Below are positions 1 through 58,680 of a DNA stretch of 64,000 nucleotides, piece after piece. Both the position numbers and the translations under genes were made by a program. The notes under the pieces were generated by a model, which worked only from the letters and a program-made list of their open reading frames with translations, ran no database searches and was not told the origin of the DNA. The stretch's first letter is position 1, and every line of letters starts with the position of its first letter. The stretch comes from Marsupella aquatica (Eukaryota; Plantae; Marchantiophyta), in assembly GCA_973895155.1 (NCBI GenBank), contig OZ316896.1:186001-250000 (forward strand), read 5' to 3'.

Positions 1-2510
1 ACCATATGTCATCCCACATAGATTTAATTATAGTCAGGTCATACCATTTGAAACCATTACTGAGTATTCCATCATTATTCCTGCCCCCATTTAGACACCA
101 TGAAGCGCGCCCCAGCCCCATTCAACTGCAAAAAGGATTTGTCAAAGCTTGCTAACCTAACTTAATGCTTTTTGTAGTCAATCTCTAATTTTTCTATCGC
201 CGTCTTCTGGTCGTGCCAAAAAGGTGCTTAATTATCACCCAATTTCAGCCTCACATATGTAGCTAGGTTGGGTTTACTTATTGCCATGCCCCATAAACCT
301 TCATGTTTCCCATGCCCCCTTCATATATGACAACCAATGCATGGTTCATGTTCAATATAAGTCCAACTTAAATGTCCAACTTAAATATATATGATCAGCT
401 CTTCACTACCCCAACCCTAAAAAAGTGTACTTATCATAATGGTAATGTGGGGTCATATATACCTGACTATTTGGCCACATTTTCACCAAAGGGGGTGGTT
501 CAAAGTTGTGACTAACCACTCACCCCACATATAACTATTGCGTAAGTCCTTTGGTTTCAAAGGAAAAAACTAATTAGGCAAATCATAGACTTTTGTGTCT
601 CTTTTGTGCTTTCAATGTCTCCACTTCAATGTGCGTGAGTGTGCCTTTGGACACAAGTTTAGGGTGCGCGGGTTTCGTTTAACACGGCAGCAGAGTGCAA
701 AGTTGAGTTGAATGTGCGCGGGAACTCGGTTTAGGGAAAAACTAGCTTGTCCATTCTGCTGTCGGCCGGGGACATTCATCGTGCTTGAAGGTTTTGTGAA
801 GGGTTTTGTGCGAGGAGCTTTACGGACTTCACTCTCGCTTGAGAGATGGTGATGGTAGGCAGGTGCAACAGCAGTGCTTGATCAAGGCTAGACTTTATTG
901 CGTAAGTCCCTGCTCGTCGTCTGGATATGTCATTGTTGTCGGGGTCTTCATGCTCGTCTGATTTGTCTTTTGCTCTTTGTGGCCGAGAGTCGACTACCTC
1001 ACTCACTGACTTCTTGTCCAATGCATACCACAACCCTATTCCTCGTTCTCAGTCTACGAATTGTTTCCAAAACTATTCGGAGAAACTGAGTCAAAGTGTC
1101 GTTCGTTGAGTGTTGACAGTGTCGCTCTTTGGCAAGCAGGAAGGTGCTTTTTCCGGGTTTCCATCGTAAGGTTACGAGCTTCTGTTGTTGCAGCTGTGAC
1201 CGACAACTGAGGAGCTACAACCAAGAGCTTATTGATTTGCAGCACTGCCATGGACGAGGAGCTGTGGAGGGCCGGGGAGCTGCAAGAAAGTGGGGAGTGA
1301 TCTTGAAGGCCAACTATCTAGCGTGAGGTGGATCATCGTGGCTGCAACATTGACCGGGCCTTTTTTTGCGTTGGGCACTGTGAGTAAGGCAATCTACGGA
1401 GGCGCGAAAGAGTCACGAGGAGTCGAGTTCAGCTACGGCAGTATTCACTTCAATTGTCCCAATGTGGTTGGCGTGAGCTGCAGGTGAGCTTAGTTGTGTG
1501 CACATTTCATGTAAGTCAAGTGGTCGGTGTTTTAGGCATTGCGGAACTTGATTGACCACCCCATGGCTAAGGTTTAAGGTGCGGACTACAACAAATATGT
1601 GTTGTTGCTGAAAGTGTTGGTGGTGAGCGACAACTGGTATTGTTTCAGCTAAAGGGAGCACATTGGAGCTTGTGTATCCATGACCTGCGACCGATTGCGG
1701 CTGCCTGTTGTTACAATCGCCGAATCAATCACGCACCCAATCTTGCGGGCAGAAACAACTTTGCGGGAGTGTTGAAGGTTTAGGGTGAGCAACAGCGGAG
1801 AGCTCATTGCTTGGTGGCAGGGTTGAAGGTGGATGATCGGGCTGCAAGGCCAACCGGGGACTTGTTTTGCATTGAGCGATTGCTGCGGATTGCTATGCAG
1901 CTTCAGTTAGGGCGGCTTGGTGCTACATCGGCACAGGTAAGGCTGCAATCCCCTATCGACGCGGACTCACCTCGTGACTGCAAGTATAGTTGTCTAGGTG
2001 ATGTATGCATTGCGTGTTTAGGGTCTAGGTGACATCGCTTCTAAGCAAAATTTGTGAGCTGCCTAGGTCCATTGCTGAATGTTGCTTCCTTTAAATTACC
2101 TGGTGCCTGCTGTTACAATCGCCTGCTCAATCATGCACCCAATCGCCTGGAGCTCATTTGCCTGGAGCTTCATCCATCAGATTCAAACTGTTATTGTTGC
2201 TCTGCCCTTTTGCCATGGGTTGCCGGCCTACCGGATGCTATCAACAGATTAAGAACAAGTCATATCCTAAGTCCCGGTGTTGCAGTGATGTCCCCGACCC
2301 TAAGATGCTTTCCGAACTCATCTTTCTTGTTTCCTGTTGCTACTGATGTATGTATGTTCTCCCCTATTTTTGCTTACAGATTGGTCTCTCCACACTTCTT
2401 GCTTGACATGATTGTTTTGCTCCTCCCTGTATCAGAACATGCCTTGTGCCCGGCGGTGGGGTGGGGGGGTGAACAGACGACCTTAAGGTTCACTACATTT
2501 CTAGGAACTG

Positions 2511-2672
2511 TGCATCTTTCAGCTGATTTTAGCCGCAAGTTCCCTTGCTTTCCCCTATTTTTGCTAAGATCCCTCCCACTAATCACATGCATCTTTCAGC
2601 TGATTTTAGCCGCAAGTTCCCTTGCTTTCCCCTGCTTTTGCTAAGATCCCTCCCCACTAATGACATGCATCC
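2511..2672. repeat. 77-bp tandem duplication (2 copies plus start of a third)
   Basis: TGCATCTTTCAGCTGATTTTAGCCGCAAGTTCCC...CCCACTAAT starts at 2511 and again at 2588. Confidence 0.9.
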
Positions 2673-3857
2673 TTTACTTTTCTCGGTGGCCCGTGCGCCT
2701 GCCTTCCTACTTTCGTTCTTATGGACTCTCCTTAGGTTTTCATTCACCTGGTTTTGGACTTTTTGCTCCGGTGGAATCTGTCTTGACAACTTGTGTTTGT
2801 TCTAATTGTTAATATCTCAAGAGGGTCGTCAACTAAGCTGAAAGGAGTCAAAGCTAACTACAAGCTAGCAAATACAGAGAATGCTCCCAAGTCGAGTCAG
2901 GAGGAAGTTACTAAAACTAGACCTTCACAACTCTCGAAACTGGAAAGTGAAATTCAGCGTGAGACACGTAGCTGAAGGCCACAAGGATAACTATATGGCC
3001 ATGCTGTCCCCCATTCAAGTCCAAAGTCCTCTTCAGATTGTCTGAACTCCTATTGAATGTATTGAATAATTATTTCATCACAGAAATTTTCAGAACAAAC
3101 ACGGAAGCACCAGGGGGCTGAGGATTGGATATTGAGGCTGAAGACATTGAGGTAATAAACTAGGTGTGGTTCGGGTGACAATGTTAGCAACTGATGCTTC
3201 TTCAGGGGAACTTCCCATGTGCAGTTTATCCACACATGATTGACTTTGGTTCTTGCTGTTTTTCTTTTGGTGTACTCTTGAGTTTGGTGTCACTCTATCC
3301 TTTCCTGTAGCCTCGAAATAGGAACACACCTGCTTAGTGGTCCCCAATCGCCCAATGATTTATAATGACTGTGTCTAGGTGATGTATGCATTGCGTGTTC
3401 ATTCCAGAAGAATGAATATGTACACTTTGCACAAACCTGGACAGATTTTGAATGTTATTTATCTGAGTTTCTGTTTGTGAGCTCTGACTTGGAGCCTTAA
3501 CATTTGTGTTTCTGTGGGGCTGAGCAGAGTTTGTTCCGTCTAGAAGCTGCTGTACTGAAGTGATCAGCCTCCGGCTTGGAGGTGAATCTTCAATTTTTTG
3601 TGGATCCGAGTGACTTCTGTCCAGCTGAGTTTTGCTTTGTCGGGACGATTGTGTTTGGCTAAGATGCTAGATTGTGGCTTGTCTTCTTGCTTCCAGCTTG
3701 TGTATTTTCAATTAATAGAAGTTGGGAACGAAGTGATAATTGAATTTCCTTATATTAAGCATCTTCACCTAGAAACTCAATACATAAACTCCAGGATTCC
3801 CTCGGGACATAAAATGAGCCAAATTGTCTCAAAATTGGGAACCTGCACCCGCACTAC

Positions 3858-4150
3858 TCAAACAATTGTGTTGGGCTTGGTGGCCTTGTAAGTCGTCTTT
3901 AGCTTTCGCAATGGAGGTTGAATCTTGCAGTACGTCAAGGGGAACTTGATCTTTGAATCATGGAACTGCTTGGTACTTTCTCGCTTGCACAGAGAGACAG
4001 GGACTGTCGTAGTCTTCATGATCTGGATGCAAGGGAACCAAACTCTATGACAAGAAGCCATCTCATCATACATCTGCTCTGCAGCTCCGTTTCTTGTGGT
4101 ATCACAATATTCCTTGTACATGTTGTGATAACCTGTACGACTCTGATACG
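3858..4150 (-). pseudogene. RPL18A: 60S ribosomal protein L18a (eL20) C-terminal fragment captured in the CACTA
   Basis: [43 protein letters not shown]....[31 protein letters not shown] matches plant L18a; N-terminal half absent; several R>C/W-type substitutions. Confidence 0.92.
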
Positions 4151-5208
4151 TGGACCCAGATACCGAAGTTCTTAATTGTGGTGGGCTTCTTTTCGAAGAT
4201 CTGGTAGACACATTATTCAGCATTTGCTAACTTCAAAACTAGAAGGGTAACACATTAAACAACAGAGAAACTCACAACATCCTCCTTTGGTCCTTCAGAG
4301 TCTGTACTTTGATTCTGAAGTTTGACTGAGTTTTTGTTTACTAAAAGAATGTGACTGTGTAAGAGTTCCGTTTGGCAGTGGATTGGTTGAAGCACTTCAT
4401 GCTAGTGTGTTTTCCACAGCTCTTCAACCAGCTTTCGTCTTCCTTGTCTTTCACCACTTACGATGACATCAATTCAGCTAAGACCATAGAAGGTTCCAAA
4501 ACATCTAACTTGTAAAATCGCATTCTGTTACATCAAGGACTAAGGTGTTGGGTGCCAAAGGAGACAACACAACAAACACGCTGAAAAGACTTTAGGACTG
4601 GGTTCAACAAGGTAGTGAAGGTGCTTAGAGCCATAGTAAGTATGCATTCTGTATCTTTCTCTGTTGATGTGAGCTTGTGCATAATGGGAGTTGTAGTTGG
4701 CAAGAGTTCCAAATATGAATAGATCCAGAAGTATGTGATCATGTACTTGCTCTATAAAGTTCTGAAGATATAAGCATTTTCTGTTAGACCAAGCAACTTG
4801 GGAGTTGGTAAGTGTCACCTGCATCTGAGGGGCTACACCGGGGCATCAGTGGAGGTTCACTTGCACAACACGACAACCAGTGAATTTTCTCTTTGCTGCA
4901 ACCTGCAAGGTGAGACTTTCGGTCTTTCTGGATGAAAAAACAGGAGTTTAATATGATTGATATACATGTCCGTCGAGAATATGGGTTTATCACCAAGCTC
5001 TTTGTCTTAGGAAACTCATAAACTCAGAATCAAATATGTACTATGCACGTTTCATGCTATGTGTATACTATGACCTGTAGTTGGAACCAAGACAATGAGT
5101 GGGAACTGATTAGTTTAGGTGGTTGCTGTTGGCGAGGCAAGTCGACCTCGTGCTCACCTTGCTCATCAAAGGACGTGAACAGAGGACATCACAACGAAAG
5201 CAACACTT

Positions 5209-5658
5209 GTGGTGAGGACCCGCAACGCTGAACATGTGCGACTTGCACGCAAGGCAGAGATGTTGCGCCTTGAGTATGTCAGACTTGGGATCCTTCCAGC
5301 CCAGTCTACATGGTACTTTGAGTACCCTGTTGTTTCCAGGAACAACTACAGCCGGCCTCTACCTGCTTCAGTACCCTTCCCGACATCCTTGGTATTTGTG
5401 TCTCTTGTACATGACCCGCCACAAATTAGGTGCCAAGGGTGTGTACACAGTTGCCAATATGACTGTCTTGCCTGTAGGGCTTCTGGCCCAGAATTGGATG
5501 ACCATTCTCTTGGATGCCGATTTTTGCACAGAGCACAATGTATCATCTGGAACCACTCGCCATCCTGCAGTGTGCCTGGTGATGTCACTTGTCCTGCCCT
5601 CCCAGACCCCACCACTGGTGACTTTGGTGTCTACACATGTTTGGATCACATGCTCTAG
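5209..5658 (+). CDS. Cys/His-rich ORF, possible degenerate PHD-like zinc finger
   Basis: CQGC..CLAC..C.FLHRAQC..YTCLDH spacing; no ATG at the ORF-track start, so it may be an exon. Confidence 0.35.
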   Translation: MVRTRNAEHVRLARKAEMLRLEYVRLGILPAQSTWYFEYPVVSRNNYSRPLPASVPFPTSLVFVSLVHDPPQIRCQGCVHSCQYDCLACRASGPELDDHSLGCRFLHRAQCIIWNHSPSCSVPGDVTCPALPDPTTGDFGVYTCLDHML

Positions 5659-6273
5659 AGGACCACTTGTCACACCGCATGCACAGACCAGATACCATTG
5701 ACCTATAGCTTAACACTCTGACTTCAACATAGAGGATATTTACTTAAAATTTTGATGTATGAGCAATTTTGGGTCCAGGGATTAGGGTCAACAGTACATA
5801 ACTTATATCCTATTATGCCTGCATTAAGCAAAATATCCTAATTTAAGAGGCTAGCAAACTCGCATAAAAGTCTCTATTGAAAGACTGCTTTCATGACTGC
5901 TTTAACCTGGTGAACATTGCAACGTTGAATGAATTAATGGGCCATGTGATAATATGCAAAATGATTTATGCCTCACTTATTTGTCTCAGCCACTATCATA
6001 ACCTATTTAGGATGTATAAATTTCAACCCTTATGACACTGCTTCATACCAATCCTCTTCGAAGAATGCCTGTTTTACATGTCACGACTATTGTATGTGAT
6101 TCAAATGCATGAAATGTTGTTGCAGATCTCCTTTGGTGAATCATAGCCACAATTAAAATTGAGGTGTTGGTGGAGAAATTGTATTAGGGGATCAGTTTTG
6201 TGTGTGGGCTCAACATACCAAAAGTATGTGTGCTCTGCATCCTTGTGTGGCCATTCCAATTCATTGCAGTAGC

Positions 6274-6417
6274 AAATGCCTTTGTACCTTAAATGCTAAA
6301 TATATTTTACTTTCTGTGCAGTCTGCTAAATTGTAGAGTCTATCTAAATGCCTTTGTACCTTAAATGCTAAATATATTTTACTTTCTGTGCAGTCTGCTA
6401 AATTGTAGAGTCTATCT
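6274..6417. repeat. 72-bp perfect tandem duplication including a splice-acceptor-like TTTCTGTGCAG
   Basis: AAATGCCTTTGTACC...AGTCTATCT at 6274 and 6346, ending just upstream of the PHD ORF ATG. Confidence 0.9.
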
Positions 6418-6428
6418 CATGCGCAGGC

Positions 6429-7109
6429 ATGGCACGGCCTAAAATTCAAGCCAAAAAGCGTGTGACAGAGGTGAGAAACACAGGTGTACTTGGGGCAGAT
6501 GCTACTAACTTCTCTGCAAGTCAGATTTTCCAGAAGGCAGCTCATTGTTGTGCCATTTGTGACGATGGTGGGGGCCTGGTCATTTGTGAGGGCCCTTGCA
6601 TGAGGCATTTCCACCTCAACCCGGAGTTTGACCTTGCTGCAGAAAACAACTGTCCAGGGGTGGGCCTCCTGTCAACACACCAGGGAGACTGGATGTGCAC
6701 TGATTGTTTGGAGAAGCAGGCTAAGTGTGCACAGTGTGGGAAGTTGGGGTCCTATGAGGGCTCTGTTGATGCTACAGCAAATGTTAGGAAATGTCCAGAC
6801 CGTTTTTGTGTGAGATTTTTCTGTTTTGAGTGTTTGCCTGCTCATGCCACAGCTTGCCCACTTCATAGGTGCAAGGCATGTGGTGAGCATGATGATGACT
6901 ACTGGACTGACATAGTCCACTGTGCTAGGTGTCCCACTATGTGGCACTATCATTGCCTGAAAGATCATCAAGTAGAGGGTTATGCTTGTGACAGAGAAAT
7001 CTATGATCACTCTGCACATGGTGTTGATCGATGGATATTTTATTGTCATCGCCATGCCATTGATCCTACCTTGCGCACTCCTGTGAGAGATCACATATCT
7101 TGGCTGTGA
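6429..7109 (+). CDS. EDM2-like: EDM2-like composite (NSD-type) PHD-finger protein, 226 aa, intronless transposon cargo
   Basis: CAICDDGG.LVICEGPCMRHFH...WMCTDC...KCAQCGKLGS...CPLHRCKACG...HCARCPTMWHYHCL...FYCHRH.ID..L.TPVRDH follows the EDM2 PHD cassette motif for motif, including the terminal TPVRDH. Confidence 0.88.
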   Translation: MARPKIQAKKRVTEVRNTGVLGADATNFSASQIFQKAAHCCAICDDGGGLVICEGPCMRHFHLNPEFDLAAENNCPGVGLLSTHQGDWMCTDCLEKQAKCAQCGKLGSYEGSVDATANVRKCPDRFCVRFFCFECLPAHATACPLHRCKACGEHDDDYWTDIVHCARCPTMWHYHCLKDHQVEGYACDREIYDHSAHGVDRWIFYCHRHAIDPTLRTPVRDHISWL

Positions 7110-7701
7110 AGCTGAACATTGTACATGCACAGTGCACCTGATGTGGATGTACTATTTTTTGAGATTGCAGAGATTCCAATTTTGAAAAGGAGTTGGGTAG
7201 GCGAGTTTATATAGGCAGCACTTATCTTGTGCTCTGGCGTCAGTGGCTGGGTACATGCCTATACAAACTTATCCTTACAAGCCTTCTTGGAAGTATTTAG
7301 GCTGAGTGGTCATTTTCATAAACACTTTCATCAGACTGCTAAATTAAAACAGGACTTCTAAGTTGTAAGCGTATAAATTATCAGGCATGCAATTAATCAA
7401 ATTGCCCTATAAGTTTGTCATTGAATGTATCCTCCTTTACAACAAAATATGTATGTGCCATGACAAGTTGGTTGCACTTCATTTCACCACGGATATGGAT
7501 TTTGTAGTATATATTCAAACAATGTCCTGCATCCGTGCAGGTGCCTAGTACGTATTGTTCACATATCCCTTGTACCTATCAAAATCGGACCTGAGCACCA
7601 GTGGGCCAGATCAACTCAAAAAGCAGGAATTTTGTTGTCCTTGTATTGTCAGGTGAACCCATTCTTCCAAAATTCACTGTCATCACGTAGGGTGTGTGTA
7701 C

Positions 7702-8574
7702 ATGGAGCCTGGTAAACGTAGAAAGTGTGACCACCCAGCAGTGTTTACAGGGGTCAGAGCGATTTTGGTCCATGGCCAGCATGGGTTGACCAAAGTGCAT
7801 TGGCCAACTGTACAGAAACGATTCTCTGAGCTCCATGGCACTGTAGTTCAGGACATCACTCCAGAGACTACACATGTTGTTGCAGGGACATGGCTATCAG
7901 TGATAAAGAAGTGGTCATGGTCCTACATGAATTCTGCAATTACTAAGCAAGGCCTAAAAGTAGTTGAGGCCTCTTGGATCACAGATTCCATAGCACATAA
8001 GATTGTACAGGATACTGAGCAATATGAGTTGTGGGAGGATGAAGAAGCTACTGCATCAGCTTGGGCTGAACAAGAAGTCTGGGAAGCAAAGGCACGGCTT
8101 GCTGATCTCCAATATGGACCTGTACTCAACAAAGGACAGAGCTCTACAAGGCTGAAGAGTATGTTGGCTGAGGAGACGAAGCAACCAACCCCCATTCTGA
8201 AAGGGCTGAGCATGGTATTTGTGGAGGCGGGAATTGGAGAGGTTAAGTGCAAAGTGTACAAGTCCACAGTGCTTGACCTAGGTGGGACAGTGGAGGAGAA
8301 TATAACAGAGGACACCACTCATGTCATTACTAAGTCATATCCCAAAGCCTGCCGCAAGTTTGGGAAGGGAGACATTCGCTTTTATGTCATGTCCCATAAT
8401 GTGTTTGTGGTTTCATATGCTTGGCTTGTGGAATCAGTAGCAGCTGGGAAGCGTCAAAACCCAATGGACTATGATCTTTTTGAGGCCTGGCCACGGAAGG
8501 GTCAGGATCCTTACAGAGAGGACTATGAGACAACAAGTGAGGAATGGGTCATTAGCGATTCTGAATCAGAGTGA
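7702..8574 (+). CDS. Tandem two-BRCT-domain protein (~290 aa), transposon cargo
   Basis: Two BRCT repeats: FTGVRAILV..LHGTVVQDITPETTHVVA..VVEASWITDSI..QYEL and LKGLSMVFV..LGGTVEENITEDTTHVIT..VVSYAWLVESV..DYDL; acidic tail. Confidence 0.88.
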   Translation: MEPGKRRKCDHPAVFTGVRAILVHGQHGLTKVHWPTVQKRFSELHGTVVQDITPETTHVVAGTWLSVIKKWSWSYMNSAITKQGLKVVEASWITDSIAHKIVQDTEQYELWEDEEATASAWAEQEVWEAKARLADLQYGPVLNKGQSSTRLKSMLAEETKQPTPILKGLSMVFVEAGIGEVKCKVYKSTVLDLGGTVEENITEDTTHVITKSYPKACRKFGKGDIRFYVMSHNVFVVSYAWLVESVAAGKRQNPMDYDLFEAWPRKGQDPYREDYETTSEEWVISDSESE

Positions 8575-9061
8575 GGAGTAGTAGCATCAGTTTGGACACA
8601 AGTTTTTTTGTATAAATCAGATCATTGAAATAAATGTGATCTTTGAACTAATGTACCTTGTTATGGTTGGTGGCAGTTGGGCTTATTTTACTGTTGGCGG
8701 ATTGTTGTTTCCTGCTGCCTGGGGGTGTCACTGTAAACGTACATGCAGAGGCGGTACATTTGAGGACAGCGGAGGAGGTGGTGACACCCTCCAACATTTA
8801 GGAATTTTGTGTCATTCACTTGACAATAGGTACACTACTTGCGAACCTGTTTTTTTCTTTTGGGGTGGTTTAGGGTTTGTGAGAATTTAGTACACGTTAT
8901 GTTAACTCTTTTGGCAGATACAGTCAGGGATATATGGAACACAAATACCACCATTAGGCATCCTTGTTCACTGCTGTCCATGACTGCAGAGCTCCCAGCC
9001 TGTTACAATGCACCCTGGTCACCACCCTCCCCAGACCCAGCCCAGGGCATAGGCACTGCCT

Positions 9062-12000
9062 TTGCATCATCCCACAAGGATATCACGCCATGATAATAAG
9101 CTTTGGCAGCGTGAAAGGTTACGAACCAGACTTTCAGGAGCCAGTAGGATGAGATGTCCTTGTGCAATCTGCCAAGGATCCCGTACCAGGGGTCTGAATG
9201 AGGTTTGGCGGCATATCGCGGTTCATGGAAGAGATCCACGACATCGAGTTTGGAATGATCCTGCAGAGGAAGATTCTTCCGACGAGGAGTGGAGGTTAGA
9301 ATTTGATGCTGCCAATGCTGCAAGACGGGCAAGTGAGGTTCTGCCTGGTGCATTTGAAAATGTTGTAGCTAGTCTCTGTGGGTTGTCAGCTCTCCAACGG
9401 GATGGTGCTCAGGCAGCACCACGTGACAAAGGAATTCATGTGGAAGAGATGGTGAGAGACATCTTCCAAGACTTGGATGCATTTCATGATGGGCTGGACA
9501 ACGAAGAGGATACGGCTGCAGATGCAAGTGTGCCCCCTGTCGAAGAGCCTCTTGATGAGTTTGAGATAGGGCAGGAAACCCCTGGGCATGATGGGATGTT
9601 TGGCTCTCCCCTGCAAATACAGGAAGGCAGGAAGTCTTTGTACCCTGGTAGCAAATGTTCTAAACTGGGATTTGTCATCATGTTCCTGAACATTTGCGGC
9701 AACCACAATGTCCCCAACGTTTTGGTTTCTGAGTTGTTGGCATTCTTGCGAACAACTGTGCTACCAGATGGTAATATTTTGCCCAAGAACATGTACGAGG
9801 CAAAAAGATGCATATCTAATCTTGGATTGAACTATGATTTGATCCATGCCTGTCCTGATGGGCATGTTCTTTTCAGAAAGGAGTATAAAGAATCGTTGAC
9901 ATGCCCTAAGTGTGGGAAGCACAGGTATCGGAACTCAGGAAAGTCTATGGTTCCCGCCAAGGTACTTCGTCATTTTCCACTCATTCCCAGACTTCAGCGG
10001 ATGTTCAGAAGCCGTGCCATCTCGGAGATGATGACTTGGGCAACTGACAAGAAAAGTGATGATGGGCTACAACGACATGCTGCAGATTCAAGGCAATGGA
10101 AACTCATAGATGAGATGTATCCCGAATTTGCTGCTGAGCCGAGGAATGTCAGACTTGGGCTGTCATTGGATGGGGTAAACCCATTTGGAGACAAGAACAA
10201 CAAATTTTCGTGCTGGCCTGTAACTATTTTGAATTATAACCTTCCTCCTTGGATGACTACAAAGCAATTTTTTGTTCTCATGGTCCTACTGATACCAGGA
10301 CCAGACAATGCTGTATCTGCCAACATAGATGTGTTTCTGGCTCCCCTAGTGGAGGAATTGAGAAAGCTTTGGGAGGAAGGAGTTCTCACATATGATGTCC
10401 TACAGAGGCTTGGGAGGTTAAACCCATTCATCCTTAGAGCCATTGTCATTCTGACTATAGCTGACTACCCAGCCCATGGGATGATATCAGGCCAAACAAC
10501 AAAAGGATATTGTGCTTGTACTATCTGTGGGCGCAATGTCACCAGTGAGTACTCCAGAGCCCTGCAGAAAGTGATATACATGGGCCATCGTCATTTTCTG
10601 AAGGCAGATCACCCTTACAGAGAAAGATAGGCATTGATTGCACACTTTGGCAATAAGATTGAGCAACGTGGACCCCCGACACGAGTGACCAAAGAGGAGA
10701 TCAGGCAGTGGGGAGCACTGAGGGATGACTATATCAAACGAGGGGGCAGGGAAGATGGAGTGAGTGATCCAATAAAGCGATATGGTGTAAAAAGACTGAG
10801 CATATTGGACTTGGAGCTCAAGTACTGGAGGGTAAGCCTCTTGGAGTTGATGCTAATTGGGATACATGTTTTGGTTCAGAGCATGTGCATTCATTTTGAA
10901 GAGAGAGACTAAACTTGAGGCATTTCCTGACGCTTTTGCATTGCAACGATGCAGGAGTTTGAGCCAAGCAAACATAACATTGATGTTATGCACATTGAAA
11001 AGAATATTTGTGAGAGTCTACTCAGATTCTTGTGTGGAGAGAAAGACACTGGTTCAGTGAGATTGGATCTTGAACAGAGGGGAATGAAACCCCATCTTTG
11101 GTTGAGGCCACATGCCCACAGAGCTGATGTGCTCTTGAAGTACCAAGCGCCCTATGTTCTGACAGACACAGAGTGGGAACTATTTGTGCAGAGGTTGAGT
11201 TCTTTGAAGGTTCCTTCAAACTATGGCAGTGCTTTCAAGAAGCATATCATGACTAGAAAGCTTGGTAGTATGAAAAGCCATGACTACCATATGTTGATGC
11301 AACAGGTGTTGCCTTTATGCCTGAGGGGCCTGTTGCAGAAGCCTGTTCGTACTGTGATCATGTGACTCAGTGATGTGTTTCATCGTATTTGTGTGAAGGT
11401 TTGGGATGAAACACACTTCCCACAACTGACAGAAGATGTCGCTCAGGTGCTGTGTGACCTGGAGATTTATTTTCCTCCCGCATTTTTTGATGTCATGACC
11501 CACCTACTTGTCCATGTTGTGGAAGAGCTACACCAATTTGGGCCTGTGAGTGCTCGTTAGTTGTACCCTTTGGAACGGTACACGAAGCTACTCAAAGGTC
11601 ACGTGAGAACATATTACAAACCTGAAGCAAGCATGGCTAAAGGTTACATCAAGGATGAGACTCTGGGATTTCTGACCGAATACATAGCACAATATGAGCA
11701 TGTGAAGACCAGGGTGTGGAATTCTCATGAGGAGGAAGGGGTGATAGGTGAAGTACTGGAAGGGGCTGCAACCACAAAGAACCTGACCATATCTATGAGA
11801 GACTTGGCACATGACTTTGTATTGCACAACACTGTGGTGATGGAACCCTGGATACAGTGAGTGCATACATGTGCTATAATCCAGTTCATGAGCTTAAATG
11901 TTGTGTTCGTGTGGTTTTCTCCTTCAGCCTGTTCATGTTTACCCAAGCTAATGCTGTGTGGTTGTTTGTTCAGGGAGTATGAGTCATTGAAGGCGGCCCA

Positions 12001-12739
12001 TCCCACTGCAGGAACAACTTTTCTAGGTTTCATGGAGTGGATCAGAGTGGCAATTAGAGAGCATCACGAGACCCACCCAGACATGGATGCAGATGTTTAC
12101 CTACTGTCTAATGCCCCTAGCCTGAAAGTGAAGACTTACAAACGGATGAGAGCATATGGGAATCACTTCCGAGTGAAGGATGGTGACAGTGCCTACAGGG
12201 TGACGAATGACTGCGGGCTCATCACTGTATTTGAGCAACAGAGCCACAATCACGACAGGGCCTGGATGGAGATGGGATATGTGGGAGAATTAGTTGACAT
12301 ATGGGCTCTAGACTATGGGGCGGTGTCCAGTCCTGTGATTCTTATGAAAGGTTCATGGGTGCGGCAGGATTGGCTTGGTAACAGGGCTACCATGAAGAGA
12401 GACAACGACGGTTTCTTGCTGGCCAATTTCAGAGGGAAATTGCCTGAATGGTCTGAGCCATTTGTGTTTCCTAGTCAAGTGGAGCAAGCTTTCTTCCTGG
12501 ATGTGGAAGACTCCCCAGGTTGGCGTGTAGTGTGTCATAAACAGGCCAGGCAACGTCGGATGGAAGGATCAAACCTTGAGTTTCATTTACACTCTCATAG
12601 TGCCTTTGATCGTCGGCGTTCAGACCAAGTGCCTGTAGTTCATGATAGCGGGGACTTCATTCCTGTGACAAGGGTAGATGCATTTGCTGAAGGAGGCGAA
12701 TTCAGAGATGTAGATGCCAACAGTGTGCCTGTGCCATGA
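9062..12739 (+). pseudogene. CACTA TnpD/Tnp2-type transposase (Transposase_21, DUF4218/DUF4216-like), intron-containing, with premature stops
   Basis: Motifs IHACPDGHVLF, KVLRHFPLIPRLQRMF, EPRNVRLGLSLDGVNPF, DVMHIEKNICE, MKSHDYH, FPPAFFDVMTHLLVH, YPLERY, EPFVFPSQVEQAFF. Probable introns ~10832-10954 and ~11857-11973. Stops at 10628, 11363 and 11558. Confidence 0.93.
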
Positions 12740-12895
12740 GTAATGTGAATTTTTTGCATGGACATTAGTGAGGGGAAGGATGTGTAATAAAGTAATTCTG
12801 AAGCAACACAGATGTATGGATGGATGCCTGGTGATTGTGGTTGCATTGTGTTATACGGGGTGACCATAGATGACATGTTTTTGTGGTCCAGTAGG

Positions 12896-15800
12896 ATGGA
12901 ACAGAGTGACACAGAGATGTGTGAGTATGAAAGGAAAGCTATGGAACAACGAGCATACGTGAAAGCCAAAATCGCAGAACTGGATCTGGAAAAGGATGTG
13001 GCTGAATTGTAAGGGAACGATTCTCAACTACACCCCTCCGCTGAGTTTGTGTGACATGAATAGTTCAATGTGGCACTGAAATTGTGACTGTATTCTCATA
13101 TTGGAATGTCGCAGAGCCACAGCATTTTCAAAGAAACAAAAGGAGTACGCAAGAAGGGTGACCAGCACTATCTCTGGGCCTGTGCGTCGGAGTGACAGGT
13201 TGAGCAAGAAGGTCGTACCTACAATGGCAGAATGTGGAGATGACATTGATGCTGCACAGGTGGGTGCAGACACTAGACAAGAAGATGCAGATGATGAGTA
13301 TTTTCCAGAGGAAATGGATGAGGATGGGGGTTATGAAGATGAATACATTGCAGAGCAGCCCCAAAAGAAACATGTAAGTAGTTTTTCCAACAAGGTTTTG
13401 AGTTAAAAACTCTTGTTTAGAGGTTTTATATGTTCAGTACTACACATATGTACCTTGCTTAGTTCCTGACATTGTAGTTGGTGATGTGATGCAGCGTCCT
13501 GCCAGTTCTGTTTTGCCTTCGAAGCCTGTGCATGCACCATACCAGCAGGGGGGCTGACCTCTGATCAAGGTTGGCAAGGTGGTAGTAGTGGTAGATCCCA
13601 GGCTGGTGCCCAATACTATGGCAGGGGGCAAGCTCTAGGTTATGCCCGTGGTAGAGGCAGAGCAGGTCCAAACCCACAATCTCGTGGGTATGGACGTCCA
13701 CCTCAACCATGGGGATGTGAGTATATATCTATATGCCAGTTCTTTGTGAAGGCATGGCACTCCTGAATTTCAGACTGCATATCAATTTTTGACATTGTTT
13801 GGGATGTATTGGATTCAGACAACATGAAATTCTGTCCACCTGCCATTGCATGCAGATTCTGCCCAACCTGATTGGGCAAATGCTAGTAATGATCAGTTCC
13901 AATGTCCACAAGGACAGACATGGGTTGAACCAGGTTGGGAGGATGGTGGTGGGTCGTGGAATGAACAAGGTTGGGAAGGTGGTGAAGGTAATTGGCAGGG
14001 ATATCAAAATTCAGTACCTACAAACGCTGGAAGAGGAGCAGGTAATGTCTGATCTTGTTAGCAATGGAAGAACTCATTATATGTGGAGTCCATTCACGTG
14101 GGGGGGACTCTGCACATGTATAATGATAGAAAATGTATGTGTGCAGGTTGGACAGTCGAACCATCGACTCAAGTATTCACTAATGCCCCTATGCAGATGC
14201 AGCACGGAAGGGGGACAGGTATGTCGGTGAATGTTCAGTTGTTTTCCTACAGTTTGTACTTAGTTTTCAGTACATATGTTTGCACACACATACCTAGAAA
14301 GTGACATCATCCGGCCCCTGTACTAGGCTGGACAGGTGGTCCAGGGTCGCAACAATTTCAGAGTGCAGTCCCTGCACAGGCATCTACAGGCAGAGCTACA
14401 GGTATGTATGTTTGAAGAATTTTTCTTGAAGTGAAGCATTGAATGTTGCCGTCATCCATTCTGCTATATGTAGTTCTCAAGCATGAATGGCATTGTATTT
14501 TCCCAGGTGGCTTCAGAACCCCAGGTAGGGTGAATGAAGGGGTGGCCAATACAACGCCCAGTACTACCGAGAGCAGTGCACGAGGGGAGGTGACAAAGAA
14601 AGGGAACGTAAAGTTGAATGAGAGACAATGGGTGGATGCTGAGTGTCCTCGCAAGAACCGATGGCATGCTGATTTGAAAGCTGAAGTATTGCGTTGGTTA
14701 GATGTGAGTGTTATTAATTTTAAAAAACAGCATCCAAAAGATTGGAAGACTGTATGTGAAAATGTTGCTGCCAAATGGAATTATGTGGGCAGTGATGATG
14801 GCGTGGACATAGGTTGCCTAGAGAGTACAACAGGTAAAATTATCAAGCAAGAGAGGTGGAGAATGCATAAGGCTTGGAAGGAAGGTGGGGAGAAGCCAGA
14901 TATGCCTCCACCAGCCAGTTGTGATGATAAAGTGTGGGCAAGGTTAGTAGCTTATTTTGTAACAGATGCTTCAAAAAAGAAGAGTTCACAGATGACCGAG
15001 GCCAGGTTGAGTGTTCAGAACCCTAATCTGACAGGAAGGACCGGCACTGCACCGACAGCTAAACGTTTGGTAAGAATGAATGGCCTAGCTATGTAATTTA
15101 TGCTACACTATGTACTATTTTTTAGTGTAAACCCATACATGTAAACTTTGTTTTTTAGTGTACGTTCCCTGAATATTGATCGATAACTTGTGTTTGCCAT
15201 GCATGTGCAGAAAGCCCAATTGGGGCAAAGCCCTTCAAAAGAAGAGTTGAGGGCTGAAATTGTGAACACCCGGGCTCAAGAGGGTGCATCTGAATCCTCC
15301 AAGCATGTAAGTTATATGAGTTCTGATTGGTAATTGAATGACCTGCGTTGAATTTCAGGTGTACACTGTATATAACATTGATTGTGCATATATTGCCCAA
15401 CATTTCATATGGAGTGATTGAACCTATACCCCTGTGTCATGTAGGGAGGTGGATCTTCACTTACAGAGATAAGTGGTCATTTGAAGGCTGTCGAAACATG
15501 TCTTCCAGAGATCAATGAACGTTTGAATTCATTGACTGACTTGTTCCATGTGAACTTCAAGACATTAATGGAAGCTGTTGTGTCGGTGAGAGATAAAATT
15601 GATTCCAATTCTGCAGGAGTTCCACCATCACCACTTGAGGTGACAAAGTCGATGCACTCTTCTGGCATGCCAACGACATGTAGGCTTGAAGGTAAGGCCT
15701 TTACAACTGTGTGGGATATGATTATTAAATGTATAGTTTGAATTGACATTGTTTGTTGAATGTGTTATTTTCAGTAACATATATTGTGGTTATTGTGTCC

Positions 15801-16601
15801 ATAGAGAATAAGACAGGTGCTACAGAGAAGAAGTATGAGAACCTGGCAAATACTCGTTGTAATTTAGAGGCAACAAAGTTGTAGTCTGTACAAGCAACTT
15901 GTTTGACAGAGGGCAGTCAACCATGTTTGGATGAGGATGACATTGGCAAGGGAGTGGATGATATCAATGTTGGGGCAAATGAGGATATCAGCAAGCATGA
16001 CAATGATACCATTGAGCCAGATTCATGCTATGTAGATCTTGACTCCATTGTAGAGATAAATGATTTGTAGAATGTATCATTCTCAATGACAGGTGTGCCT
16101 CTTGTTGAGATAAATCCAACCAAAGAGTTAGTTGGTATGACACTCCCAGGTGATGAACCTGCTACTGTGACAGTCCTAACAGAGGAACCTACTGAGCCTA
16201 GCTTCACTACTGTGAAGAGAGGAAGCATGCGCACACGAAGCAAGTCTGCTGGTGGGAGCAGAGCCACGTCAAAGGTTTCATACAAACCTCCAAGAACAGT
16301 GCTGGCAGAAAGATCTAAGGTGGAAGTGGGGAAAGCACCTAATGCTGAGGGACAAAGTGGCTTGTTAGCTGTTGATGAGAGTGGAACACGAGTAGGATTT
16401 GCCAGAGTGCAGGTTGGTTCCACAACGTTCCATGGCAAGAGGATTCCCCTAGGTTATTCAGTAGTGTTAGTCACATTACTAGTGAAACCTAAAGCTGTCC
16501 TTCCCATTCCAAACACAAATGATAATCCTCCTCAAAAGACACTTGGAGATGCTGCAGGTTCTTTGGTATTATGGCCAAGCAAGTTCATAGAGGATCCATA
16601 A
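12896..16601 (+). CDS. TnpA-like multi-exon CACTA accessory gene (Ptta/En/Spm-like and Tnp1-like C-terminal domains), possibly degraded
   Basis: Exon ~14507-15069 WARLVAYF..KKKSSQMTEARLSV.NP..TGRTG; last exon ..FHGKRIPLGYSVVLV..LPIP...TLGDAAGSLVLWPSKFI; many small GT-AG exons; exact model uncertain. Confidence 0.75.
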
Positions 16602-17099
16602 CAATGTCATGCCATTATTTGTTTGTAGTGTGAGTCATGTTATGTAGATTTTAGATGTCAAGAAGCAGTACAAGAATCATGTCCTCTTGGAGATTCATAG
16701 TATCATGCATGTGCTTTCAGTTATCTCATCCTACAGTCATCAATTATGAGTTCCTGTTTTGTCTAAATTACATTGATCACATTGTAAACTATTCCATTGG
16801 AATTCAAATGATCTTCATTTTTTAGCAAGATTGTGATTGTGTTTAATTCTTATGAATGTTTTATGTAGGATCTGCTTATATGATGCTTTGTTTCATGTGG
16901 ATGTCATTCATGCTATGTTCATTTCTTGTATTCAATGTGTTATATTTCTAAAGTTAGAACATCAGGTTTCTATGTATTGTAATGTCGAGTGCTCTCTCTC
17001 CTTATGAACTGTCCCTCTGTGTTCATTAGTCATGGTTATAACTTGCATGTGAACCTTATTAGTTATAAACATGAGTATATAGAGTCCCAAAATGGTTCT

Positions 17100-17457
17100 G
17101 TTGTGTGACGCGGGCCAGGGTCTCCATTGGTCTCTCCTGTGACACTAAATAGTCACACGCTAGTCGTTGTTGAATGCGGGTAAGTCATGTATGTGACTTA
17201 CGATGTGACTCGCTAAAGTCATATTGCAGTCACATCGAAACAAGACTAGACTCCACAATAAAGTCACAGATCACTCACAAATGGGTATCAAGCAAGTTGC
17301 AAAGCCCAGTATCAATAGTGACTTCCATTTTTTGGTCTCAACTTTTGCAACTCCAAGGGTCACAGCGTGGGTCAAGTCACGTTGAGTCACAATGAAGTCA
17401 CATGAGCCAAAATGAGTCATATATTGCGGTCTCAGTTCACCTCGGATTCTTCTAGTG
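17100..17457. repeat. CACTA subterminal repeats and right TIR
   Basis: About a dozen AGTCA(C/T)/GTGACT motifs in both orientations, then TTCTTCTAGTG. Confidence 0.85.
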
Positions 17458-19266
17458 AAGAGAATGCCTTTGGTGTATCCCGAGAGACAACTGAGGTGCC
17501 TACCATACTCCAGAGGATCCCCACGCCAAGCTGAGCTGATAGAGGTTACCCAGAACCGAATTGTTACCCTTGTGGAGTTACTGGAACCAGACGACATCCG
17601 ACAGCAAGCTTGAAGAAGTCTTTAAGTGTTCTTAGTTAGTTTTTAGAGTAGTACATCTTATCTGATTTTTAGAAATGCGTTCTAGAGCTTTGGAAGCTGT
17701 CATACTTCTTTAGTGTATAGTCTGTACCTAGGAAAACCTCCCGGCAAAATCTCAGAGTTTTCTGACTTATAGTTAGGAAGTTAAAAATAGTTGAATTCAT
17801 CAAGTCTTTACTTTACCGCGGTTACGAGTTACGACTTAGCTTTTACTAGTTTAAGAGTTACTAGTTTCCGATTACGAGTTCCGATAGACAGCCGATTACG
17901 AGTTAATAGTTACTAGTTACGAGTTCATACTTAGCCATTTTTCCGGCTTTTCACTTACTGAATCGCCATTTTAAAATTTTGAAGGGTATGAAGAGGCATG
18001 TCTCTTCGACCCTGTGACCTCTTACTCTGTAGATTTTTACTATAAGACCCCTCCACCACTAGTGTAGATGATGGTTAAGTTATGCATTTTTGCCTTTTCC
18101 TTGTGTTAAACTATGTAAGTAGTGGGTAATTCCAAAAGCATGAAGAAACTGAAAATTTTTAAATTTTGTACGGTGTTTAGACTGCAATTATTGCTAACTG
18201 TAACTGAAACAACATTCAAGGTTACTAAGTTCCTAAGTTACAAGTAAACTCAGTTTATGAGTTTACTAGTTCACTGCTTTACGAGTTACGCTTTACGATT
18301 TGGCGACCCTGTGATCGTGACATCTTACAACTAGTTCAACGGGACTCCACAACGGATGAAGAGGTCACCTTGAAAGGGAAGGAATGCAAGACATAGGCGC
18401 TCATTACTGACTTCTCTTCCACCTTACCTCTCAAACTCTGCCCAGCTTCAACCGGTATTTCAGAGATGTCAAATGGAGACTTCGACCTTTCTATTCTAGG
18501 ATGATGAGTAGTGATGAGTTCCTGTTTCATTATCCCCAAGTATATGCTGCTACCTATAACAACTATGATGTGATCGGGATGTACAGAGAAGCTCTTCGTA
18601 TAGATTCATGTTATTTGATGAAGAGAATGCCTCTGATGTATTCTAAGAGACAACTGAGATGCCTACCTTACTCCAGAGGATCCCCACGCCAAGCTGAGCT
18701 GATAGAGGTTACCCAAAACCGAATTGTTACCCTTGTGGAGTTACTAGAACCATAGGACATCCGACAGCAAGCTTGAAGAAGTCTCTAAGTGTTCTTAGTT
18801 AGTTTTTAGAGTAGTGCATCTTATCTGATTTTTAGAAATGCATTCTAGAGCTTTGGAAGTTGTCATACTTCTTTAGTGTATAGTCTGTACCTAGGAAAAC
18901 CTCCTGGCAAAATCTCAGAGTTTTCTGACTTATAGTTAGGAAGTTAAAAATAGTTGAATTCCCTAAGTCTTTAACAATATCGCAATTACGAGTTACGACT
19001 TAGCTTTTACTAGTTTAAGAGTTACTAGTTTCCGATTACGAGTTCCGATAGACAGCCGATTACGAGTTAATAGTTACTAGTTACGAGTTCATACTTAGCC
19101 ATTTTTCCAGCTTTTCACTTACTGAATCGCCATTTTAAAATTTTGAGGGGTATGAAGAGGCATGTCTCTTCGACCCTGTGACCTCTCACTCAGTAGATTT
19201 TTACTATAAGACCCCTCTACCACTAGTGTAGATGATGGTAAAGTTTAGCAATTTTTGCCTTTCCTT
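17458..19266. repeat. Direct repeat with ~1163-bp period (17458-~18102 matches 18621-~19266)
   Basis: AAGAGAATGCC...GGATCCCCACGCCAAGCTGAGCTG...TATAAGACCCCT occurs twice; internal GAGTTAC/ACTAG microrepeats. Confidence 0.9.
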
Positions 19267-19277
19267 GGTGTTCTGCC

Positions 19278-20735
19278 AGTTGATCATGAATGTTAAGAGT
19301 TCGAGATCAAGCTTGACACCAGGAGAAGACTTTCCTCCTTCTTGTGGTTTAATCCTTTGAATAAATCATGGGAAGTAAAATCCCAATTGTGTAAATCTTA
19401 TGAGATGTGATGACAGATTCCTCTTTGGTGACTCATTACAATCTCCTGAGTTCTTAGAGTTAACTCACTGAGTTTAAGTCTTATTTGAAAGTGATGGATT
19501 TTCTTTCATGTTGCTTAGTACCATCTAAATGTTGAAGTAGACCCTTTTAAGATCTTATCTGAGTACCATTTAGAAAGAAAGGATAAGACATGTTGACGGC
19601 ATTTTAAAAGAGTACTCTAGTAAGCAATTTAGATCTGAAAAGCAATATGGATTTGAATCCTTAAGTCTTTTCATTTTGATTTATGTCTAAGGAGTAACCT
19701 TGGTCTATTCCAAACTCCCTTAGCATACTTTGAGATATTTTTCCTTGTGTTTTGTTAATCATTTCCTTTTCATTAATTTATAGTTACATGATGTTGAGTT
19801 GTCATTAAAAACCACTCACCGCTGTGGAGCGATCTTCAAAATACCTTAGTAAAGTAATCAATCCTGATTACTATGTGTTAAAGAGAGTCTTTAAACTCTC
19901 ATTTGTGTTTTTATGTATCAAATCAACTCCATCTTGTTCTTTACGGGAACGAATACCGAGTTTGAAGACCTATAAATGTGTTTTTGGTTCTTCATAGCAA
20001 ACTACAAACTAGTTGATCATGAATCTATGAGTTCGAGATCAGGTTTAACATTTGGAGAGACTTACCTCCTTCTTGTGTTTTTACCTATGATTATAAACAC
20101 AGGAAGTAAAATTCCTTTTGTGCAAATCTTTTGAGTTGTAATGATAGATTCCTTGTTGGTGACTCATTGCAATCTCTTGAGTTCTTAAAGTTAACTCATT
20201 GAGTTTAAGTCACATTGAAATTGATGGATTTTCTTTCGTGTTGCTTAGTACCATCTAAATGTTGAAGTAGCTACCTTTTAGATCTTATCTGAGTACCACT
20301 TAGAAAGAAAGGGTAAGACATGTTGACGGCATTTTAAAAGGTACTCTAGTAAGCAATTTAGATATGAAAAGCAATATGGATTTGTATCCTTAAGTCTTTT
20401 CATTTTGACTTATGTCTAAGGAGTAACCTTGGTCTATTCCAGACTCCCTTAGCATACTTTAAGATATACTTTCCTGTGTTTTGTTAATCATCCCTTTTTA
20501 TTAATTTACGTTTACACAATGTCGAGTTATCATTGAAAACTACTCACCGCTGTGGAGCGATCTTCAAAATACCTTATTAAAGTAATCAATCCTGATTACT
20601 ATGTGTTAAAGAGAGTTCTTAAACTCTCATTTGTGTTTTTATGTATCAAATCAACTCCATCTTGTTCTTTACGGGAACGAATACCGAGTTTGAAGACCTT
20701 TAAGTACGTTTTTGGTTATTCGTAGCAAACTACAT
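19278..20735. repeat. ~730-bp tandem duplication
   Basis: GTTGATCATGAAT...GAGTTTGAAGACC...TAGCAAACTACA starting at ~19279 and ~20012. Confidence 0.9.
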
Positions 20736-58000: not shown

Positions 58001-58680
58001 GTGTATTTACAATCAATCGGCTTCCGAATTGCAAACCTAAGTAGTTGCTTGTTTTCTTGATGGCAATCTAGGATTGCCTGCCATGGCATATGCTTCCTTA
58101 TATAGCCTATTTTTGTTCCCATATCTCCTGAGGAGGGTTTAAGGGACGACATTGAGCAAACTCATCGTAGGGTGGGTTGGAGATTTGTCATTTGCATAAA
58201 CGTCTGTTCTTTCTCTGGAAGTTATTGATGCCATCCCTCGTCCTAGACCTGTCCTGCCAAGGCGTTGTGCTTGTAGGCTATGACTGACGGCTCACAATGC
58301 GGGATTTTCAAAACTATGAATTCATACGTTCCCGACTTGGCGCTCATGGAACTTGCTCCATTAGCTGTGGACCTTGAAGTCAATTCTAGGGTAAAAACCT
58401 CTGATTTTCTCAACCTGGTCCTTTCTGTTGGATTGTGCTAGCAGGATTCACCAAGGCGGAGAATCGCCACCATTGGTCAGACTGCTCGCCACCCGGATGT
58501 CTACGAGCCGTGTGACGATTCATTTGCTTTAGTGGATGCCCTCTTGGCTGACAAGGTGAACCTCGTGGAGCGGCAACCAAATTTGTGTTTGGAGGTCGGC
58601 TGTGGCAGCGGATATGTAATCACATCGTTAGCCCTGTTGATGGGGTCAGAGTGCAATGCTCACTTTCTAGCCACGGACAT
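55050..58680 (+). mobile_element. Left end of a second CACTA element, possibly Pack-type with captured gene pieces
   Basis: CACTAGTAGAAACCGG at 55050 followed by AAGACTA(C/T) subterminal-like repeats; right end not in window. Confidence 0.6.
58457..58680 (+). pseudogene. N6AMT1: N6AMT1/HemK2/MTQ2 (eRF1 methyltransferase) N-terminal fragment, cut by an LTR insertion
   Basis: RIATIGQTARHPDVYEPCDDSFALVDALLADKVNLVERQPNLCLEVGCGSGYVITSLALL..HFLATDI (VYEP.DDSF plus SAM motif I EVGCGSG). Confidence 0.9.

Follow-up and report, generated by a model that had tools for sequence, protein, structure and literature searches.

In plants and green algae, EDM2 and the EDM2-like proteins carry a cassette of three zinc fingers that closes with a TP-x-RDH motif. 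In the available sections of one report, the PHD fingers of EDM2 bind to H3K9me2, among other marks, as part of the ASI1-AIPP1-EDM2 (AAE) complex, which promotes distal polyadenylation over intronic heterochromatin (PMC7472560), and the excerpt of a second lists RFD, acidic, PGR, ELP methyltransferase-like and proline-rich regions as further parts of the protein (PMC7529245). NSD1, NSD2 and NSD3 contain PHD arrays with the same Pfam trio as the locus described here, in addition to SET and PWWP domains and a catalytic part. Stand-alone EDM2-like genes that are likewise short and consist mostly of the cassette occur in grasses (rice Os03g0266600, wheat, finger millet), and three of them start with M-A-R-x-K. 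CACTA/En-Spm transposons, Pack-type elements included, have a CACTA terminal inverted repeat (TIR), subterminal repeats, Transposase_21 and TnpA-like genes and captured host fragments in common, and a 3-bp target-site duplication is a feature of the superfamily. Few cases are known in which plant DNA transposons escape or exploit heterochromatin; VANC is one example and maize TnpA is another. As far as the accessible part of the source goes, VANC of VANDAL/Hiun elements, an anti-silencing protein, and the PHD of Rehavkus are comparable element-encoded, chromatin-directed proteins; both belong to Mutator-related elements, however, VANC is not described there as having a PHD, and in Rehavkus the PHD belongs to the transposase rather than to a gene of its own (PMC6446971).

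The window (the whole stretch of 64,000 nucleotides of Marsupella aquatica DNA that was analysed) contains a CACTA transposase gene and, upstream of it, such a cassette as a separate gene. At 6429-7109 on the plus strand, 226 codons from ATG to TGA encode a basic N-terminus and a stand-alone EDM2/NSD-type triple zinc-finger (PHD) array, in agreement with a sequence-only reading that had described an intact ORF of this length with an EDM2-type cassette and a short basic N-terminus. When the surrounding 3.2 kb (5701-8900) were shuffled 500 times, a stop-free run of this length never arose. Along the protein, Pfam places PHD-1st_NSD, then PHD_NSD and then PHDvar_NSD, none of which reaches its curated cut-off, and a profile search found EDM2 cassettes of land plants and algae. 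All 24 zinc-ligand Cys/His sites are kept over the three fingers, one of them as a His-to-Cys exchange in the RFFCFEC motif of finger 2. The linker, also rightly recognised as shortened, has 7 residues, whereas 107 other proteins have 10-55, with a median of 27. Absence of the other EDM2 domains could equally be confirmed, as the ORF stops at the cassette: the N-terminal RFD (no Pfam match to DNMT1-RFD, which angiosperm EDM2 proteins do have), the acidic, PGR and proline-rich regions and the C-terminal ELP methyltransferase-like region are all missing. Further differences from EDM2 are the loss of an acidic patch and the probable location in a transposon, and compared with NSD1/2/3 the SET and PWWP domains and the whole catalytic part are lacking. 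By its sequence, the protein is EDM2-derived, but no EDM2 itself.

Structural comparisons lead to the same group of proteins. The best PDB sequence matches were NSD2 (E 0.0035) and AIRE, and an AlphaFold model built from an 18-row alignment was confident across most of the cassette (mean pLDDT 75.6), with values below 50 at residues 1-26 and 221-226. The top matches of a structure search with this model were PHD arrays, headed by the PHDvC5HCH tandem of NSD2 with a middling score (Z 5.0, rmsd 2.6, 75 aligned residues); no EDM2 entries of the PDB were returned by either the sequence or the structure searches. Residues 1-26 form a tail that is predicted to be disordered, and with its low confidence there the single-chain model speaks neither for nor against tail docking. 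Three histidines outside the canonical ligand set (His39, His194 and His222) are nearly invariant in the family and could possibly form an extra metal site.

The coding frame of the PHD gene is intronless, as had been claimed, but this applies to the ORF itself. An exact 72-bp tandem duplication and a pyrimidine-rich stretch (6274-6428, plus strand) lead to a 3'-splice-site-like AG at 6425-6426, two bases before the ATG, and an exon (and intron) upstream of the start codon is therefore likely. Similarly, the gene does lie about 2 kb upstream of the transposase and is co-oriented with it, but the gap is filled by a second intact and intronless ORF (7702-8574, plus strand; 290 aa) with two BRCT domains and an acidic tail, which the sequence-only reading had overlooked together with the H3-like N-terminus of the PHD protein discussed below. 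The ATG of the BRCT ORF is also preceded by a splice-acceptor-like AG. Two of 1261 candidates in a search with this ORF were full-length relatives (60% and 54% identity), which share its start, its pair of BRCTs and its acidic tail and come from raw assemblies only. Its two BRCT domains align to each other without gaps (44 bits, 25% identity) and likely arose through internal duplication, to judge from this alignment. Phosphopeptide-binding tandem BRCTs of the BRCA1/MDC1 type form a closely packed pair with a phosphate pocket; here some 50 residues separate the two domains, and each is the other's nearest match. PDB matches of the BRCT protein were weak only and its structure model reached a pLDDT of 36.5. 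The BRCT of plant DNA polymerase lambda is a possible lead for a resemblance, the match to the human domain having an E of only 1.1. The observed/expected CpG ratio is 0.20-0.23 in the PHD and BRCT ORFs versus 0.22-0.42 in the transposase.

The transposase itself (9149-12739, plus strand, with an approximate start) contains Transpos_assoc, Transposase_21 (PF02992, E 2e-66, above cut-off) and DUF4216 in GT-AG-bounded exons at about 9149-10831, 10955-11857 and 11975-12739. In-frame stops at 10628, 11363 and 11558 suggest that this copy is probably dead. At the same rate (3 stops in 1116 codons), 1.6 stops would be expected in the PHD and BRCT ORFs and the probability of finding none is 0.19, so that their intactness in this copy is not significant alone. 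Downstream, a putative exon of a TnpA-like gene is found at 14443-15096 (plus strand; Transposase_24, a weak match with E 1.5e-4, below cut-off), and the gene probably extends over about 13100-16600. The right end of the element (17000-17457, no strand assigned) consists of a cluster of short subterminal repeats (17000-17450) and a TIR (17443-17457) that reads CACTAGAAGAATCCG on the minus strand and begins with CACTA. Relative to known CACTA/En-Spm elements, two extra conserved and intact genes, the PHD cassette and the double BRCT, are placed upstream of the transposase. No CACTA/EnSpm element with PHD, EDM2 or BRCT genes is described in the portion of the literature searched, and repeat-library annotations in supplements could already list elements of this kind.

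A left TIR, which should match CACTAGAAGAA, was not found in the 64-kb window. The 650 bases to the right of the right TIR match a repeat at 18619-19272 with 94% identity; the upstream half of this repeat, seen at 18540-18620, is present only there and absent from 1-17457, and it should abut the left TIR. Because 1-17457 contains neither this half nor a left TIR, the left end is placed beyond base 1, and positions 1-1800 (no strand assigned) would represent the subterminal and promoter region on the left side. A related CACTA element starts at 55050, and the TIR of its left end is identical to that of the first element in 13 of 15 positions. In a comparison of 4-mer likeness over 99 windows, the terminal 900 bases of this end were closest to 1-600 and the next 1200 bases to 1201-1800 and 601-1200; the ranking is weak evidence, since alignment of 1-5000 with the 55050 end revealed no similarity. 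Alternatively, the left end could possibly have been deleted, with host DNA in its place. The claim that a CACTA transposon carries the PHD ORF is inferred, with the right TIR inside the window but not the left one; the ORF lies very probably inside the element. The right end of the element is flanked by direct repeats in two pairs (17456-20734), one of about 650 bp with 94% identity and one of 730 bp with 89%, and the CACTA is inserted in the first.

Between the presumed left end and the PHD gene lies a decayed fragment of a 60S ribosomal protein L18a/eL20 gene (3858-4226, minus strand), a frameshifted 3' part that is still near host proteins. It is probably passive cargo of the same CACTA element, but may just as well be a sign of host DNA. 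The 5' edge of the fragment has a splice-acceptor-like site, which points to a genomic rather than a processed capture. Further on, an ORF at 5179-5658 was dropped as a gene, with no Pfam match and only sub-threshold atlas matches (best 0.80). The Cys-rich frame at 5120-5658 (plus strand), which follows a splice-acceptor-like site and has one upstream stop, may be what is left of a third accessory gene.

Relatives of the PHD ORF form a family of their own. A word-based search identified five relatives of similar length among 85 candidates (37-81% identity), and a search for longer homologues via shared words gave one match among 2993 candidates, an insect NSD, where an HMM search found EDM2 proteins instead. 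In a profile search of a 50%-cluster library with 1.8 billion representatives, the best 150 of 565 matches were listed; among these, short proteins stood at the top, interleaved with and then followed by EDM2 and EDM2-like proteins, the latter from liverworts, a moss, a lycophyte, a fern, angiosperms and green algae. The short family, with members assigned by eye and by profile, comprises at least 22 proteins including that of the window. Its members are 36-81% identical to the PHD ORF, and among the nine that span the full length, pairwise identities run from 36 to 91%. Host EDM2 cassettes among the matches listed reach 35-42% at best (liverwort, lycophyte and fern), all of them from organisms other than that of the window. 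The ORF is thus no single neutral capture nearly identical to a host EDM2, but a member of a diverged family. In a metagenome scan none of 11 loci belonged to this family (seven were grass-type EDM2/EDM2-like and four short or unrelated PHD matches), and two scans of viral contigs returned no relative of the PHD or the BRCT ORF.

The 13 members of sufficient length formed a single clade in a FastTree analysis of 141 rows (support 1.0), as did 11 members in an IQ-TREE analysis of 48 rows (SH-aLRT 98), on a stem of 0.93 changes per site. Of the 24 ligand columns, 19 show no variation among the 11 longer members, and this implies that the stand-alone protein has long been under purifying selection. 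The His-to-Cys exchange, which had been taken as a feature of this ORF, is not peculiar to this copy: it occurs in 15 of 15 members with the motif versus one of 114 other proteins among the matches listed, that of the green alga Ostreobium. The 7-residue linker is present in all 12 members in which it was scored. Both are old fixed traits of the family and not signs of decay. The candidate sister group in the 48-row tree were green-algal proteins (SH-aLRT 88); after removal of four long-branch or compositionally odd rows it was a liverwort paralogue with a C-terminal cassette (support 86). Canonical liverwort EDM2 as sister was not rejected (p-AU 0.31), and the grass stand-alone genes were rejected (p-AU 0.004). 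The latter nest with angiosperm EDM2 (SH-aLRT 93) and keep the His and the longer linker, so their stand-alone state is of independent origin.

Several side observations concern these host relatives. The liverwort paralogue belongs to a second EDM2-like type found liverwort-wide in Marchantia, Riccia and Calypogeia with the cassette near the C-terminus (P0015, P0018, P0020, P0025, P0029 and P0060), and it is a candidate donor of the transposon gene. The grass cassette genes (L002-L007, P0034, P0040, P0044 and P0053) have a short C-terminal motif in common, and some start with M-A-R-x-K. The sequence-only reading had also proposed that the ORF might be a relic of the transposon-host exchange that produced EDM2. 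This idea is not supported: hosts ranging from green algae to angiosperms have the cassette in long proteins, NSD proteins have it too, and in the trees the short family occupies a single long and derived branch. Transfer from host to element would be the simpler direction.

After the initiator Met, the PHD protein starts with Ala-Arg-Pro-Lys-x-x-Ala-x-Lys and equals histone H3 at positions 1, 2, 4, 7 and 9 (shuffle p = 0.002 for this protein); its start codon was set by comparison with homologues. The Lys4/Ala7/Lys9 register is found in both main branches of the short family, while the remaining tail varies. In the available text on H3 N-terminal mimics (H3TMs), these are defined by the pattern iM-small-R-x-K, H3 residues 1-4 and 7-10 are given, and 48 of 20,996 human proteins start with M-small-R-x-K (PMC8166343). 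The PHD protein shares this start, on a tail predicted to be disordered; H3TMs are described there from the human proteome (PMC8166343), whereas here the motif would belong to a transposon protein with PHD fingers. Nine of the 19 short-family members with an N-terminus have M-small-R-x-K at residue 1 (10 if one internal Met is counted) and are spread over both main branches, the members being non-independent samples for such counts, compared with three of 155 other proteins among the matches listed, all three of them short grass-type cassette proteins. Ala7 and Lys9 are each present in 6 of the 10 members with an H3-like start. The start is missing in P0004, the second-closest relative with 73% identity, in P0005 and P0009 and in the subgroup of P0010, P0158 and P0159. 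Liverwort and algal host EDM2-like proteins likewise start with M-A-R, and the basic tail may serve no more than nuclear localisation.

The residues that would read a histone tail are altered as well. In AIRE, according to the accessible part of the source, D297 binds H3K4 and D312 binds H3 Arg2 (PMC2261226). Set against such AIRE/BHC80-type readers of H3K4me0, the PHD protein has kept the acid for Arg2 (Glu54 aligns with D312) but lost that for Lys4, as His39 aligns with D297 just before the first Cys. The 12 residues preceding this Cys contain 0-2 acids in 17 of 17 family members scored, compared with a median of five in 62 host proteins. With both the K4-binding acid and the acidic patch gone, canonical H3K4 reading is doubtful, and the family-wide loss of the patch before the first PHD means that the mark specificity of EDM2 is not assumable for this protein. 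The earlier transfer of H3K9me2 reading from EDM2 to the PHD protein is weakened to that extent.

Both the PHD and the BRCT ORF are intact, co-oriented, directly upstream of the transposase and represented by diverged full-length stand-alone relatives, and a transposon-maintained pair of a chromatin reader and a BRCT accessory protein in CACTA is the likely interpretation on present sequence comparisons. As both have distant and well-conserved relatives, they were likely kept by the element for handling host chromatin rather than picked up as junk, and we regard them as probable element-maintained accessory genes of a CACTA lineage. A plant CACTA lineage would have taken the two genes from its host long ago and maintained both since, with the EDM2-like gene trimmed to its start and the zinc-finger cassette. 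Each ATG follows a splice-acceptor-like AG, and the two genes may for this reason share a leader further upstream, to which each is joined by alternative splicing. The cassette is predicted to bind H3 tails on the chromatin of the element in competition with host readers such as EDM2, as a decoy that would work without the other EDM2 domains; the tail with Ala1-Arg2-x-Lys4, Ala7 and Lys9 could be mistaken for H3 by host readers or writers of H3K4/H3K9 or by the protein's own PHD, and the BRCT protein would serve as a docking point for DNA-repair factors where the element excises or inserts. If the genes are indeed maintained by the element, such a shield or decoy seems somewhat easier to defend than pure targeting. 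The account as a whole, i.e. an old host-derived accessory pair with the PHD protein as predicted chromatin shield or decoy, is put forward as a tentative one that may well need revision.

Should it hold, a trimmed host reader of transposon chromatin and a BRCT adaptor would constitute a new strategy of counter-silencing or targeting, built from the host's own parts. Both ORFs give small, soluble proteins that are open to direct testing, and the short family offers a set of natural variants of the EDM2 cassette (His-to-Cys, short linker and lost acidic patch) for the study of histone-mark reading. A bolder version, which we consider unlikely, assigns a whole chromatin toolkit to a CACTA clade of non-seed plants, made up of an EDM2-derived reader with an H3-tail mimic, which would bait or block the H3K4/H3K9 machinery of the host, and a duplicated BRCT adaptor, which would recruit DNA repair. 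Histone mimicry is known from viruses; in this version it would serve as counter-defence of a plant transposon.

Alternatively, the genes could be maintained by the element with the PHD protein as a tether: by reading a histone state it would direct the transposase (or TnpA) either to donor ends or to preferred target chromatin. End-joining repair would be recruited by the BRCT protein, and the basic N-terminus would be nothing more than a nuclear localisation signal or DNA-binding arm. This explanation draws on the same family and position evidence as the shield or decoy, the pairing with a BRCT protein points to a step at DNA breaks, and about half of the members lack the H3-like start. The chromodomains of chromovirus integrases are a precedent for chromatin readers on mobile elements. 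The PHD of Rehavkus is another (PMC6446971, in the part available), and the copy studied here has landed in a repeat-rich region full of retrotransposons. On the other hand, none of the 173 proteins examined matches the element outside the PHD and BRCT ORFs, and among them neither a PHD-BRCT or PHD-transposase fusion nor an interaction surface for the transposase was found; a single site does not allow a preference in insertion to be deduced, and the two main branches of the family have the Lys4/Ala7/Lys9 register in common while the rest of the tail varies. A tether is rather unlikely, but a close rival of the shield or decoy.

Another possibility is that the ORFs belong to a lineage-specific family of small host genes, a non-seed-plant parallel of the grass EDM2-like genes, with the present copy outside the element or only recently swept up with its neighbours. 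No left TIR is seen in the window, a host L18a fragment lies 2 kb upstream, grasses independently possess stand-alone cassette genes of which three start with M-A-R-x-K, and purifying selection per se is silent on who benefits. However, seven of the 22 short-family members depart from homology and continue with 14-79 unrelated residues, so that they look frameshifted; six are partial and some have Cys-to-Tyr changes. The 11 members of known source all derive from raw assemblies (Logan, JGI) and none from annotated proteomes, though Marchantia, Riccia, Calypogeia, Sphagnum, Ceratopteris and Diphasiastrum are present in the data through EDM2-like proteins. In terms of sequence, these frameshifts and the raw-assembly origin fit a transposon gene with many dead copies. 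In addition, the grass genes are rejected as sister group, the ORFs are intronless, co-oriented and CpG-depleted like the transposase, and the absent first half of the target repeat puts the left end of the element beyond base 1, all of which makes a host gene quite improbable. Neutral Pack-CACTA cargo, i.e. processed or partial host fragments that are passive and intact by chance, is very improbable: host captures do occur (L18a here, N6AMT1/HemK2 in a second element), the absence of stops is not significant (P = 0.19) and a fast-evolving donor is conceivable with the host's own EDM2 outside the comparison, but the L18a cargo is still near host proteins and frameshifted, unlike the PHD ORF, which is only 35-42% identical to host cassettes, has its start, stop and zinc ligands kept in relatives down to 36% identity and carries fixed family-specific changes.

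The surroundings of the element contain further mobile DNA. The second, related CACTA left end (55050-58681, plus strand) terminates in part of an N6AMT1/HemK2 (KMT9) methyltransferase gene (58493-58681), cut where a retrotransposon-derived repeat starts, and no partnering right end was found in the window. This fragment is a second chromatin- or translation-related capture. The region from 21085 to 64000 is a nest of Ty3-type retrotransposon pieces and includes at least five copies, 80-96% similar, of a region that encodes a long coiled-coil protein and another uncharacterised ORF.
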